A DNA stretch of 64,000 nt from Escherichia coli (lineage in GTDB: Bacteria; Pseudomonadota; Gammaproteobacteria; Enterobacterales; Enterobacteriaceae): the NCBI RefSeq assembly GCF_001677475.2, contig NZ_CP015229.1; one strand, given 5' to 3'. The position numbers and the translations under genes were made by a program. Positions within the stretch are counted from its first letter, which is position 1, and each line of letters starts with the position of its first letter. The notes beneath the pieces are model-generated. The model searched no databases. It was not told the DNA's origin and saw only the letters and a list, made by a program, of their open reading frames with translations. Shown in pieces: positions 21,543 through 25,002 of the stretch.

Positions 21543-21781
21543 GATTAACTACTCCTGTTAGTTGCTTGTGGTGAGCGGCTGTTACAGGCGGCAACCTGTA
21601 GCAGTCGCGTTAAATATCAACGCATTACCTTCATTACCTGCTTCATCTTCTCCTGGGTGATCGCCATATCCAGAATACGGCAGATCACTTCCTGATCGTC
21701 TGCTTTAAGCTCATCAACCTGCTTACACAGTTCTTTTAACCGCTTGTTTTTTATATCGAAAACATCGCGGAAGAAGAAGGT

Positions 21782-22861
21782 GTGCGCCAGGCGGCCTACG
21801 CGCTCAAGCTGTTGCAGTCGGACGGGGAACTGACCATCGCCAGTACGGGCAAGGATGACGCCAGCGGTAACCTGGTCACCAAACAGTATACGGTGAAAGG
21901 CCCGGTGATGCTGATGCTGACCACCACCGCCATCGATGTTGACGAGGAGTTACTCAACCGCTGTCTGGTGCTGACGGTGAACGAATCGCGGGAACAGACG
22001 GAAGCTATCCACGCGGCGCAGCGTTACGCGCAGACGCTGGAAGGACTGCTGGCGGCTAACGAAAAAAGTTACATCACGCAGCTTCACCAGAACGCGCAGC
22101 GGCTGCTGCGCCCGCTCAACGTGGTGAACCCGTTCGCCTCGCAGCTCACGTTCATGAGCGACAAAACCCGCACCCGGCGCGACCACATGAAATACCTGAC
22201 GCTGATCCAGGCGATCGCCCTGCTGCACCAGTACCAGCGGGAGATCAAGCGCGTGGAGCATCGCGGGCAGGTGGTGGAGTACATCGAGGTCACGCGGGAG
22301 GACATCGCCCTGGCGAACCGCCTGGCACATGAAATACTCGGGCGCACCCTGGATGAAATGCCGCCGCAGACGCGCAAACTGTTAACCCTGATCCAGCAAT
22401 GGGTGAGCGACAGCGGTCAGGCGCGTGAGGCGATGCGGTTCACCCGTAAACAACTGCGTGACGCGGTACAGTGGGGCGACACGCAGCTCAAGATCCACCT
22501 GGCGCGGCTGGTCGAAATGGAATATCTGCTGGTCCACCGTCTCGGGCTGACGTTCTGCTATGAACTGCTGTTCGACGGGGACGGCAGCGCAGACACCGCG
22601 CACCTGTGCGGGCTGATCGACGTACCGGAACCACCGTATGACGTCGCCCGGTCGGGGGAAACGGTGAAGCAGCTGGCCTCTGGTCGGGCAGTGGTCGGCG
22701 GTCAGTCGGGTAAGGAAAAAACCGCCTCAGACCAGACACCACGAGGCTTACAGGCCGGAGCGGTCGGGGCAGAGGAAAAAGCCCTGTTCCGGCAGAACGC
22801 AAAAAAACCGTCCCGCAATCATACTGCGGCCCGTCCGGGCCGGAGCAACACGGAAGCATAA
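21782..22861 (+). CDS. mobile-element-derived protein, possibly a replication/primase-helicase-like fragment (unclassified, probably N-terminally truncated)
   Basis: 359-aa ORF with balanced composition in a GC-rich insert, followed by a tyrosine recombinase; GTG start with no obvious RBS; family assignment from memory only. Confidence 0.35.
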   Translation: MRQAAYALKLLQSDGELTIASTGKDDASGNLVTKQYTVKGPVMLMLTTTAIDVDEELLNRCLVLTVNESREQTEAIHAAQRYAQTLEGLLAANEKSYITQLHQNAQRLLRPLNVVNPFASQLTFMSDKTRTRRDHMKYLTLIQAIALLHQYQREIKRVEHRGQVVEYIEVTREDIALANRLAHEILGRTLDEMPPQTRKLLTLIQQWVSDSGQAREAMRFTRKQLRDAVQWGDTQLKIHLARLVEMEYLLVHRLGLTFCYELLFDGDGSADTAHLCGLIDVPEPPYDVARSGETVKQLASGRAVVGGQSGKEKTASDQTPRGLQAGAVGAEEKALFRQNAKKPSRNHTAARPGRSNTEA

Positions 22862-23065
22862 GTACGACTTCATCCGGTCGGGGCAACGGCTGCAATAGTC
22901 GGCCCCTGGTCGGCAGTCAGTCGGCGGGTAGTCGGGGTGCGTAAAACCCCCGCAGGCCGCGCCCGGCAAGGTTCAGGCCATGAAGCGGTCGGCCTGCCTG
23001 AAAATCACTGTTCCATCCTCTGTTCTTCTCTCTGTCGTACCGTAATCTCAATCAGGACAATCATC

Positions 23066-24095
23066 ATGACAAAACCCATCCCTCCGGGGCCGGAGGAACT
23101 TTACCTCAGCCGCCAGAACCTGACGCAGCGCCAGTATGTGGTGGTGTGGCTGGAATACCTGACGGCACAGAACTACAGCGCGATCAGCGTAAGCGACTAT
23201 CGCGAACGGGTGTTACCGTTCGTGACATGGTGTGAGGAGCGCGGGCTGATGTACGCGCCGCAGGTCAGCCAGCCGCAGCTTGAAAGCTATCAGCGCCACC
23301 TTCACGGCTACCGTAAGGCGGACGGCCATCCGCTGGCGGTCAGCGGTCAGGTGGGCCGGATAAGCGCGATAAAAATCTTTTACCGCTGGCTGCTGAAGCG
23401 GCATGTGATCCTGTACAACCCCGCCGATCTGCTGGAACTGCCAAAGCCGGACAAACGGCTTCCGGCGCAGGTGTTCAGTAAGGGCGAGACGCGGCAGGTG
23501 TTACAGAGCCTTGATATCAACACGCCCGTTGGCCTGCGCAACCGGACAATCCTTGAGGTGCTGTGGAGTACCGGGATCAGGCGGATGGAGCTGGCCAGCC
23601 TGATGTTGTGGGATGTTGACACCGGGCGCGGTGTGGTTAACGTGCGGCAGGGTAAGGGGCGTAAGGATCGGGTGGTTCCGGTGGGCCATGTGGCGCTGGG
23701 ATGGCTGGCAAGACGTGCGACCACAGATGACGCGCCAGCGCGACAGTGGTCATCTGTTCGTGACGAAATACGGCAGCGGGATGAAACGCAACACGCTGAC
23801 GGCGATGGCAGGCACCGCGATCCGGGAAACGGCACGGATCGACAAACCGGGCGCGTGCCATATCTTCCGGCACTCGATGGCGACGCAGATGCTGGACAAT
23901 GGCGCAGACACGCGGCATATCCAGGCGATCCTCGGCCATGAGAAGCTGGAGACGACGCAGATCTACACGAAGGTGGCCATAAAGCCGTTGCAGAAGGTTC
24001 ATGCGCGGACGCACCCGGCAGAGAAGCGGCGAAGGGAAAAGCGCGTGCAGCAGCCGGACGAGGCCACCGTATCGCCGGACAGCCTGAAAAGTTAG
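23066..24095 (+). pseudogene. tyrosine recombinase/integrase (XerC/D-like) with a frameshift near 23720
   Basis: N-terminal part in frame of ORF 22937..23941 (MTKPIPPGPEELYLSRQNLTQRQYV… to …[11 protein letters not shown]); C-terminal catalytic part in ORF 23613..24095 (…[17 protein letters not shown]…[39 protein letters not shown]) in another frame; AGGA RBS before ATG 23066. Confidence 0.7.
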
Positions 24096-25002
24096 GTGGC
24101 GATCCCTGTAAGGCCGTGGGGTGCGGTGCAGGGCAGACAACCGCCTTCCCTGGCGGTTGACTGCCCCCTGCCAGCGGCGTGCGCGGGGGTAAATGCCGTC
24201 CGCCCCGTGGAGGCAGCCGCGCCCCATGCGACCATGCAGCACGGGGCAAACGTCATTCAACATAATGCGGATTATGCGCACTCTCGCCGGTCGGCAATGA
24301 CGGCGAACCCGATCCGCTGTGCGCGGCTCGTGTTCGCACAATCCGCATTATGTCTGACGCCCCCGCGTTCAGCCCCGTGGTCCGTGCAGCGCAAAGCTTC
24401 GCTGGCGCTCCGCTCTGCTGCCGGGTGCGGTGTTCTTCTGTGGCCCCGCAGTCGCCGCCATCCCTGGCGGCTCCGGTGCCGTTCTGCGGCAGCGTCATCG
24501 TGTGGCAGTCAGTCAGAAAAGGGTGTCGGCCTGGCGGCCTCCGCTTGTAAGGGCTTTATGCCCGCCCGGCGTCGTCTGGCTGCGGCGGCTCGTGCCGCGC
24601 AAAAAGGCCGCGCGTCACTCGTTCCCGCCTCGCCAGCTTCCGCTGCCCGCCCCGGTCAGGTGTGGTCATGCAAAGGCAACCCCCGGTCAGGCAGCGGTGC
24701 CACAGAGCGCCGTTCCGTCGCTTGCGGACTCTCTGCCGCCCGCACCCGCAGACCCCGCGCCGTGGCCCCGCCATGCCGCCGGAGGCGTCCTGGCGGCCCC
24801 CCGTCACGGGGTGCCGGAAACGGACTTAGTGGAAAGCGGAATGACAGGCGGTGGTGGTGGTGCTATGGTGAGCGGGCGTGAAAATGCGCGTCGGGAAAGT
24901 CGGGTTAACGTGCTGTTAAATAAGTAAAAGGTGATAGCCGGGAAGCCAGAAACGGCGCGGGCGGTAGCGTGTTAAAAAGTGTGACCTGCACCGGATCGTT
25001 CC

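Follow-up and report, generated by a model that had tools for sequence, protein, structure and literature searches.

A probable inactivated plasmid-like element in the rhsC locus of Escherichia coli and its intact relatives in polymorphic-toxin loci

To our knowledge, the acquisition of toxin tips and the growth of orphan arrays have so far been explained only by unspecified horizontal acquisition plus homologous recombination, and, the 2026 work of Martinkus and colleagues aside, we know of no published vehicle for incoming Rhs or CdiA tips. The evolution of Rhs and CdiA genes is described by the C-terminal displacement model (Jackson et al. 2009; Koskiniemi et al. 2014; both as cited in PMC5727410). 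Polyimmunity loci sometimes adjoin XerC/D-type recombinases (Zhang et al. 2012, PMC3482391), and integrase-like genes lie near Rhs genes in bee-gut bacteria, where their role was left open (Steele et al. 2017, PMC5727410). The recombinase-associated immunity islands of Bacteroidales (rAID) consist of a tyrosine recombinase followed by an array of short orphan immunity genes with conserved intergenic motifs, and their assembly is described as unknown (PMC12247911). Finally, a 2026 preprint attributes Xer-type recombination systems beside Rhs immunity arrays to Martinkus et al. (2026). Here we analyse a GC-rich insert at positions 21543-25002 of a 64,000-nt stretch of E. coli DNA (contig NZ_CP015229.1; the whole stretch is called the window), which lies in the rhsC locus (kdp/ybfA to ybgA). 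The insert is probably an inactivated, integrated copy from a family of small plasmid-like elements specialised in polymorphic-toxin loci. This family is very probably the same as the Xer system of Martinkus et al., as far as that system can be known through the citing preprint.

The locus in the window runs from the main Rhs gene (16055-20737) through an immunity gene, a SymE gene and the element to an Rhs core-end stub (24985-25086). The sharp rise in composition described in the original prediction, a first reading of the letters alone, was borne out, with a GC content of 0.59-0.725 over 21800-25000 against 0.29-0.46 in the flanking cassettes. The insert holds a 359-aa open reading frame (ORF) at 21782..22861 and two recombinase ORFs, 22937..23941 and 23613..24095, which overlap in different frames; from 24096 to about 24930 there are only ORFs rich in Arg, Ala and Pro.

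Intact relatives of the insert are present in other E. coli chromosomes. Megablast with the 3.46-kb region matched 62 of 5426 complete E. coli genomes at 207 places, all of them chromosomal, with a median of four per genome, and the stretch matched in each subject is about 5.5 kb long, 2 kb above the length in the window. As an example, the rhsC locus of E. coli SCU-113 (ybfA to ybgA) contains an Rhs gene and an immunity gene followed by two non-identical tandem units. Such a unit is composed of a SymE gene and a helix-turn-helix (HTH) gene on the minus strand, a "DNA primase" gene of 2733 bp, a "XerC" gene, about 1 kb of non-coding DNA and an orphan cassette. A second Rhs locus of this strain (ansP to pptA, behind a VgrG gene) harbours two more units, which belong to a second subtype. 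Intact units measure 6-9 kb and are also carried by Photorhabdus thracensis DSM 15199, Pectobacterium aroidearum L6 and Lonsdalea populi N-5-1.

The chromosomal survey covered one genome per species, and the best 70 of at least 460 primase-helicase relatives were examined in detail. All of these 70 belong to Enterobacterales, and a single Photorhabdus genome can hold as many as six copies; the main hosts in the genome scan include Xenorhabdus and Photorhabdus. The same order of genes was seen in 60 loci representing about 15 genera. The recombinase gene lies downstream of the primase-helicase gene in 63 of 63 units, and SymE lies upstream of the primase gene on the minus strand in 62 of 66. 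Among the 41 full-length units with at least 5 kb of upstream sequence, 22 stand directly behind a long Rhs core, 14 behind another unit and one behind a stub only, while four have neither. Because 36 of the 41 units follow an Rhs core or another unit, and because the units occupy two or more Rhs loci in E. coli, a functional tie to the toxin/immunity cassettes is supported and a chance landing in a spacer is not. The original prediction had allowed for debris of an integrative element that fell into the spacer. The first half of that suggestion stands, while the association with Rhs loci contradicts the second; a lack of any association with Rhs cassettes in other genomes had been named as a result that would speak against the prediction, and the upstream counts show the opposite.

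The intact replication protein has 910 aa. Pfam places a DnaG-type zinc ribbon at residues 6-93, the DnaG catalytic core (DNAG_N) with a Toprim domain at 128-345 and a P-loop at about 562-592. In a sequence search against solved structures the primase part was matched, and the C-terminal half was without a match. The C-terminal 431 residues were therefore modelled with AlphaFold2 (AF2) from 67 homologues, and the model reached a predicted local distance difference test (pLDDT) value of 91.4 and a predicted template-modelling (TM) score, pTM, of 0.88. When this model was used in a fold search, the best matches in the Protein Data Bank were MCM2-7 subunits (E from 1e-10 to 1e-6, TM about 0.5), followed by BchI, RuvB, MCM8/9 and RavA. 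On the modelled fold, the protein is thus a predicted fusion of a DnaG-type primase with an MCM-like AAA+ helicase that ends in a winged-helix part. The assignment as a replication protein is based on the DnaG primase N-terminus together with the MCM-like AAA+ C-terminal half, and it agrees with the original prediction of a replication-related ORF, since the 359-aa ORF is the C-terminal part of this protein. The C-terminal domain belongs to a very large family with 8419 representative clusters at E <= 0.001 in a library of 1.84 billion proteins.

Comparison with the intact units reveals what has happened to the copy in the window, which aligns to them over its full length save for a 2.19-kb and an 11-bp deletion. 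In the pairwise mapping, positions 21164-21764 align to SymE and to the 3' part of the HTH gene. Position 21764 of the window corresponds to position 15222 of an intact E. coli locus (L001), and 21763/21765 corresponds to L001 17412, 2.19 kb further on and inside the primase gene. The junction (21764..21765) has a microhomology of only about 2 bp and is absent from all 5426 complete E. coli genomes. The deletion took away the N-terminus of the HTH protein, the control region between the two genes and the first 613 or so residues of the primase. What remains of the divergent HTH repressor gene is its last 48 codons and the stop (21617..21764, minus strand; L001 15075-15222). The surviving part of the primase-helicase gene (21765..22861, plus strand) is 91% identical in DNA to L001 17412-18428 and encodes residues from about 614 to the end, that is, past Walker A, without the zinc finger, the Toprim domain and Walker A. 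The 359-aa ORF, which represents the C-terminal 40% of the roughly 910-aa protein, is hence a truncated gene, because the 2.19-kb deletion took its N-terminus along with most of the divergent repressor gene.

The recombinase pseudogene (23066..24095, plus strand) was examined in the same way. The original prediction had proposed to look for an intact recombinase in related genomes, and one was found in E. coli at L001 18502-19557 with 91% identity. The frameshift of this Xer-type tyrosine recombinase is due to an 11-bp deletion at 23707/23708, inside the interval 23690-23760 in which it had been expected; the lost bases are nt 643-653 (GGGCGGTATCT) of the intact gene. A second lesion is an in-frame 15-bp deletion at 24053. 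The 2.19-kb and the 11-bp deletions are both probably real, since homopolymers are absent from either place. With primase and repressor genes deleted, the recombinase frameshifted and one palindrome left (see below), the window copy is unable to replicate, excise or recombine. It is a fossil, in which orphan toxin tip B and its immunity gene keep a potential function. Two points had escaped the earlier reading, namely the truncation of the 359-aa ORF by a deletion and the identity of the final 100 bp or so as an Rhs core-end stub.

The intact recombinase combines a Phage_integrase catalytic domain with a SAM-like N-terminal domain. It scores 533 bits on NCBIfam NF002331 (PRK01287, named XerC; cutoff 371) but with 222 and 223 bits it stays below the cutoffs set for true XerC and true XerD, respectively. 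Integron-integrase models gave 119.6 bits for TIGR02249 (cutoff 265) and 65 for NF011946 (cutoff 435). In nine Photorhabdus loci (L022, L025, L026, L028, L029, L034, L055, L067 and L071) an extra segment of about 300 nt was observed just upstream of the full recombinase gene; it resembles the SAM-like N-terminal domain, with about 42% protein identity to residues 19-120.

The intact HTH protein (132 aa) reaches 78.9 bits on the model of the RstR-family repressors, just under the cutoff of 80. RstR is the repressor of CTXphi. According to a tblastn map of loci L013-L082, the repressors share 28-85% protein identity with the E. coli allele, compared with 57-80% for the primase-helicase. The same repressor allele (78-85% protein identity) occurs in E. 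coli, Pectobacterium fontis (L014) and Photorhabdus australis (L027); the other Pectobacterium and Photorhabdus repressors are only about 28-41% identical. Such a hypervariable repressor would fit heteroimmunity or incompatibility groups and, by analogy, recalls RstR.

The 0.9 kb behind the recombinase gene consists of a palindrome, a conserved module of about 340 nt and an Rhs core-end stub of about 100 bp. It had been described as non-coding, and its conservation across genera with indels that are not multiples of three agrees with this. The inverted repeat first noticed at 24261..24280/24333..24352 is also real and turned out to be longer, with arms of 30 nt (24260-24289 and 24324-24353) that are 83% complementary and 34 nt apart. 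It is part of a palindrome of two inverted dif-like Xer sites (24255..24358), which begins 160 bp after the stop codon of the recombinase in the window. Site 1 (24255-24282, minus strand) reads AGTGCGCATAA-TCCGCA-TTATGTTGAAT and has two mismatches to the arms of E. coli dif, a likeness matched by none of 100 shuffles. Its XerD-type arm TTATGTTGAAT is nearly invariant and agrees with E. coli dif at 10 of 11 positions. Site 2 (24331-24358, plus strand) is weaker and has the central hexamer in common with site 1. We accept the suggestion that the repeat is a putative recombinase site.

The same architecture was found 160-250 bp past the recombinase stop codon in Pectobacterium, Photorhabdus, Dickeya, Edaphovirga, Budvicia, Lonsdalea and the other E. 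coli subtype. In copies with an inserted DinJ/RelE pair the palindrome follows that pair (L039, +832). Its parts follow in the order XerD-type arm, 7-nt centre, XerC-type arm, short apical hairpin, XerC-type arm, centre and weaker XerD-type arm. This layout is that of the folded attP of CTXphi and, more loosely, of integron attC. Covariation was measured in a family-wide alignment (A5) of 29 sequences, with partner-slid controls and 500 shuffles. Standard pairs fill 94.9% of the palindrome cells, against 24-48% with slid partners; eight pairs are changed on both sides, and the covariation value of 0.242, compared with 0.064, was reached by none of the 500 shuffles. The apical stem itself varies among GGGCC/GGCCC, CCGC/GCGG, TTGC/GCAA and ATGC/GCAT. 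Folded as single-stranded DNA, canonical members gave -18.6 to -21.9 kcal/mol (z -2.7 to -4.6) with a small internal loop in the central region beside the XerC-type arm, while the palindrome of the window gave -33.6 kcal/mol (z -5.4) with a fully paired centre.

There is one Xer-like palindrome per unit. No Xer-like sites were found to flank the tip/immunity cassettes, weak matches within Rhs stubs being at background level, and none was found at the left edge of the first unit. It was also observed that the central spacer of site 1 (24266-24271) is 6 nt in the window against 9-10 nt in the closest E. coli copies (SCU-113, L003 16662-16670; L002). The spacer length differs among E. coli copies because a G run varies in length, and it is 7 nt in most other genera. 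The site may be decaying in the E. coli subtype of the window, as far as the sequences tell.

The non-coding module (24446..24780, plus strand) was found by nhmmer at 70 places, always on the same strand and in the same position, including a plasmid of Lonsdalea; the match in the window has an E of 2.9e-75. Among E. coli copies about 550 bp are nearly invariant (in the window, near-identity extends to about 24984), even across subtypes that share 77% identity in the recombinase gene and 85% in the primase gene. Across genera, indels in the module disrupt any reading frame. RefSeq annotates a "hypothetical protein" of about 160 aa within it (L001 19866-20348 and 13233-13706; L004 7731-8213), which is probably spurious because the conservation across genera includes these frame-breaking indels. 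A search of Rfam with window 20500-26500 at E <= 1 gave no match in the non-coding 0.9 kb and detected only small RNAs (sRNAs) antisense to SymE. A structured RNA was considered and rejected, as the RNAalifold consensus is weak at -8.4 kcal/mol, although a few local hairpins covary. A promoter and terminator scan returned counts at chance level. We regard the module as a cis-acting site, for which an origin of replication is the most likely role, though as a candidate only.

Behind the module, the Rhs core-end stub (24985..25086, plus strand) directly follows an in-frame TGA and runs into orphan toxin tip B. It is 73% identical to the end of the main Rhs core over 77 bp, and the longest perfect match is 11 bp. 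At this identity, the search for the trace of a crossover by comparing stub and core end was uninformative. Within units, the core stubs before orphan tips comprise 30-213 residues of Rhs core. Five Rhs core-end motifs are present in the window (20333, 25054, 26263-26340, 30126 and 31329-31406). The short stubs at 26263-26340 and 31329-31406 are preceded by an AT-rich spacer of about 165 nt and not by the backbone, and these spacers share GCGGTAG[CT]GT with the 3' end of the module (24963-24972). The two short-stub cassettes might be deletion derivatives of units; this is unproven, the stub and the 10-nt motif being their only common parts.

Plasmid forms and circular records were retrieved as well. 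A circular plasmid of Lonsdalea populi (11,289 bp) carries RelE/DinJ, XerC, the primase (71% protein identity), HTH and SymE genes, two tip/immunity cassettes and a second truncated unit, and no other candidate replication gene is annotated on it. A circular record of 8,758 bp labelled Shigella flexneri (L002) is exactly one unit of an E. coli subtype-B array; both records are from PLSDB. Further copies of the element lie on conjugative IncF plasmids, with no Rhs gene in the retrieved stretch, and some relatives carry RelE/DinJ or VbhA toxin-antitoxin genes. Direct repeats flank a unit in SCU-113 (tip, immunity, SymE and HTH) and in a plasmid of Pseudomonas aeruginosa (L008; tip and immunity).

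More distant backbones, with primase-helicases 55-60% identical, have the order HTH (minus strand), primase-MCM (plus), XerC-like (plus) and toxin-antitoxin. They are often in tandem and followed by orphan tips and immunity genes. Such backbones lie directly behind a TpsA/CdiA-like gene in P. aeruginosa pPA1609-475 (L008), behind a filamentous-haemagglutinin (FHA) gene in Paraburkholderia (L012), behind an FG-GAP repeat protein gene in Janthinobacterium (L011), behind an invasin-repeat protein gene in Providencia (L009) and upstream of a TpsB gene on a Salmonella IncF plasmid (L007). The orphan tip of Paraburkholderia is preceded by a 225-bp stub of the FHA gene that is 73% identical to the region before the main haemagglutinin toxin domain, so the principle of the stub holds for FHA genes too.

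We regard an episome that docks by homology as the likely source of the Rhs arrays. In an intact unit, SymE with its antisense RNA is followed by the divergent RstR-like repressor, the primase-MCM helicase, the XerC-subfamily recombinase, the palindrome, the module, the core-end stub, and tip and immunity genes. The circle would replicate through its primase-helicase. Its integration would be of the Campbell type, with homologous recombination between an Rhs locus and either of two arms that the circle has in common with such loci, the core-end stub left of the cassette or the SymE region right of it. If the crossover falls in the stub, the incoming tip would become joined to the resident Rhs gene and the old tip would be displaced downstream behind the backbone, which is C-terminal displacement. 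If it falls in the SymE arm, the incoming tip would be added downstream as an orphan. Either event gives the arrangement seen in the window, and tandem arrays would build up through repeated events. The direct repeats in SCU-113 and in the P. aeruginosa plasmid are as Campbell integration predicts and would allow the unit to loop out. Since there is one palindrome per unit and none at the borders of cassettes, the recombinase is assigned to the resolution of multimers or to the excision and insertion of units between the directly repeated sites of an array; it may act on a palindrome folded as single-stranded DNA or as a cruciform, like CTXphi attP and integron attC.

Several points weigh against docking by homology. 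Given the 73% identity and the 11-bp longest perfect match, efficient RecA recombination through the stub is doubtful; judged by sequence, recombination would be better served by the SymE arm, with its roughly 300-400 bp at 75-96% identity. Neither iterons nor an AT-rich unwinding region could be recognised in the module. The two small circles on record might be loop-outs, or artefacts of assembling tandem repeats, and no terminal overlaps were detected in short element-bearing contigs. In addition, the Xer-type palindrome was not recognised in the distant CdiA/FHA-adjacent elements, and the part given to the recombinase in the mechanism is inferred.

A rival explanation, which we consider rather unlikely, keeps the same element and lets it move by site-specific recombination. 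The XerC-like enzyme, possibly with host XerD, would join the folded palindrome to a resident site, arrays would grow at an element already present, and homologous recombination would be inessential. A single conserved palindrome directly past the recombinase gene or the inserted toxin-antitoxin pair is what such a mechanism would use, and the near-invariance of the XerD-type arm with its 10 of 11 dif positions, the internal loop in the centre of the folded form, as in the CTXphi attP hairpin, and the RstR-like repressor all speak for it. Tandem arrays, too, are the expected product of repeated insertion at one site. However, the elements are not at dif, Xer-like sites are missing from the left edge of the first unit and from between the cassettes, and each unit has a stub of the host toxin gene that site-specific insertion does not need. 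Moreover, the first unit adjoins an uninterrupted Rhs gene and immunity gene, and therefore a site-specific event cannot explain the first entry into the Rhs locus.

It is improbable that the backbone is instead a resident, locus-bound module for the maintenance or diversification of Rhs arrays, whose enzymes amplify, shuffle or regulate cassettes in place, with the circular records being artefacts. The exclusively chromosomal position of all 207 E. coli places would suit it, as would short contigs without signs of circularity and the mere six relatives among the viral contigs of IMG/VR. Yet the element is patchily distributed, being present in 62 of 5426 E. coli genomes; different Rhs loci and conjugative IncF plasmids harbour copies, and one repressor allele is 78-85% identical across E. 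coli, Pectobacterium fontis and Photorhabdus australis. The addiction modules of the units are of a kind typical of plasmids, and the Lonsdalea plasmid consists only of backbone and cassettes with no other annotated candidate replication gene. A chance origin of the insert, as debris of some unrelated prophage or integrative element that landed between cassettes, can hardly be credited: inactivated genes and foreign composition agree with it, but the same gene order stands behind Rhs genes in about 15 genera, related backbones stand behind CdiA/FHA genes, and the units have no structural, packaging or capsid-redirection genes, no tRNA-type attachment arrangement, and PHROGs matches to primase, integrase and repressor only. 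A phage origin was likewise rejected, in view of the six IMG/VR relatives and the lack of structural genes.

Returning to the episome with homology docking, we tentatively offer a wider proposal, in which our confidence falls short of even. Self-replicating episomes may be the vehicle of C-terminal displacement and of the growth of orphan arrays in Rhs genes and, in diverged form, in CdiA/FHA genes. They would carry a promoterless tip and immunity gene behind a stub of the target gene and dock by homology, so that the tip is fused or stored. A XerC-like enzyme acting on a folded double Xer site would let units leave as circles and, if true, would be a third case of tyrosine recombination on a hairpin substrate after integron attC and CTXphi attP, and RstR-like repressors would set the heteroimmunity groups that allow coexistence in tandem.

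The cargo cassette of the window copy (25087..25790, plus strand) consists of orphan toxin tip B, which extends to 25515, and a putative immunity gene (25527-25790). Cassette B is about 95% identical to an orphan at another Rhs locus, beside type VI secretion system genes and yafV, in strain 14EC033 (L083); tip B is present in 21 genomes in total, among which its orphan state was inspected in 14EC033 only. Tip A of the main Rhs gene occurs in one complete genome only, that of E. coli A34 (L084), with 97% identity. The rhsC locus of A34 is a simple series of Rhs, immunity, SymE and ybgA without an array, as would be expected of a locus that has yet to receive an insertion by way of the SymE arm. 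From the loci in which tips A and B occur, cassettes appear to move between Rhs loci together with their SymE gene. The distribution of the two tips mildly favours entry of the window copy through the SymE arm.

SymE copy 1 (21213..21542, minus strand) is a gene of the SymE family of type I toxins with which the conserved backbone begins on its left; it may also serve as a homology arm. It is a distant relative, scoring 42.6 bits on the NCBIfam SymE model, below the cutoff. Rfam matches antisense to it are isrA at 21343-21471 (plus strand; 107.5 bits against a gathering score of 51) and a symR-like match at 21537-21611 (plus strand; 39 bits, below the gathering score). SymE-like genes at the ends of cassettes are generally overlapped by antisense isrA, symR and Ssr1 matches, including those at 25760-26100 and 25967-26050 (both plus strand), and on account of these overlaps the three RNA families appear to be part of type I toxin-antitoxin pairs of Rhs cassettes. 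A transposase gene of the ISAs1/ISEc1 type (H-repeat) was observed at 26521-27657, directly after a short Rhs stub. The same arrangement in SCU-113 (L003 17670-18806) and in the circular record L002 indicates that this insertion sequence travels with the units.

The family is a concrete candidate vehicle for the exchange of toxin tips, with parts that can be tested. If mobile, it would explain the patchy toxin/immunity repertoires of E. coli, Photorhabdus, Xenorhabdus and soft-rot bacteria, the spread of immunity to the toxins of competitors, and the SymE-like genes and antisense sRNAs (IsrA, SymR-like) that punctuate Rhs islands. The value of the window copy itself lies in leading to the family and in the dated scar that it has left on the rhsC locus.

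With regard to known systems, at the least this kind of element has been noticed before, and the window copy is an inactivated E. coli member. In our literature searches, which did not extend to the content of Martinkus et al. (2026), neither the primase/XerC/SymE unit nor its primase-MCM gene was found described, and the same is true of the palindromic double site, the module, the plasmid form and the connection with CdiA/FHA genes. As characterised in the citing preprint, the likeness of that system is a Xer-type recombinase within arrays of orphan Rhs tips and immunity genes.

The analogy with rAID, drawn speculatively in the original prediction, was right in spirit. In both cases a tyrosine recombinase is tied to orphan immunity arrays against contact-dependent toxins, and both are thought to be mobile. 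The defining features of rAID that were tested, however, are not those of this locus: in place of a co-oriented immunity array without toxin genes, the recombinase of the window is followed by non-coding DNA and tip/immunity pairs. An rAID has one recombinase and many short immunity genes, has no toxin gene and belongs to another phylum, whereas each unit here has a replication gene, a repressor, a toxin-antitoxin pair, a recombinase and one site, the cassettes hold toxin tips with a stub of Rhs core, and a complete Rhs gene heads the array.

Integrative mobile elements exploiting Xer (IMEX) such as CTXphi use the host XerCD, encode no recombinase and integrate at chromosomal dif. The element resembles them in its dif-like sites, two of them inverted and capable of forming a hairpin with an imperfectly paired centre, in an RstR-like repressor divergent from the replication gene, and in its tandem arrays. 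It differs in that it encodes its own Xer-like enzyme, sits in toxin loci far from dif and is without phage genes. Integrons share with it a recombinase of the wider Xer/IntI group, a site built as an imperfect palindrome, with two inverted binding sites on either side of a variable loop, that likely acts in folded form, and promoterless cassettes which accrue behind an expressed gene. In contrast to integrons, it scores far under the cutoffs of integrase models (120 vs 265 bits), has one palindrome per 6-9 kb unit and not one per cassette, and has no attI or Pc platform.

The combination of repressor, primase-helicase, tyrosine recombinase and addiction module is likewise found in small primase-helicase plasmids with their own resolution recombinase and in satellites like P4 or the phage-inducible chromosomal islands (PICI). 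The element here differs from these in having no mobilisation, packaging or capsid-redirection genes and no tRNA attachment site, in the MCM-like half of its helicase, and in cargo and insertion sites that are restricted to polymorphic-toxin loci. Finally, the C-terminal displacement model describes the same arrangement of a full-length toxin gene followed by orphan tips, each after a core fragment and able to be re-joined by homologous recombination. In the summary given in PMC5727410 that model names no vehicle for incoming tips, nor are the original papers known to name one; the element described here would be such a vehicle.

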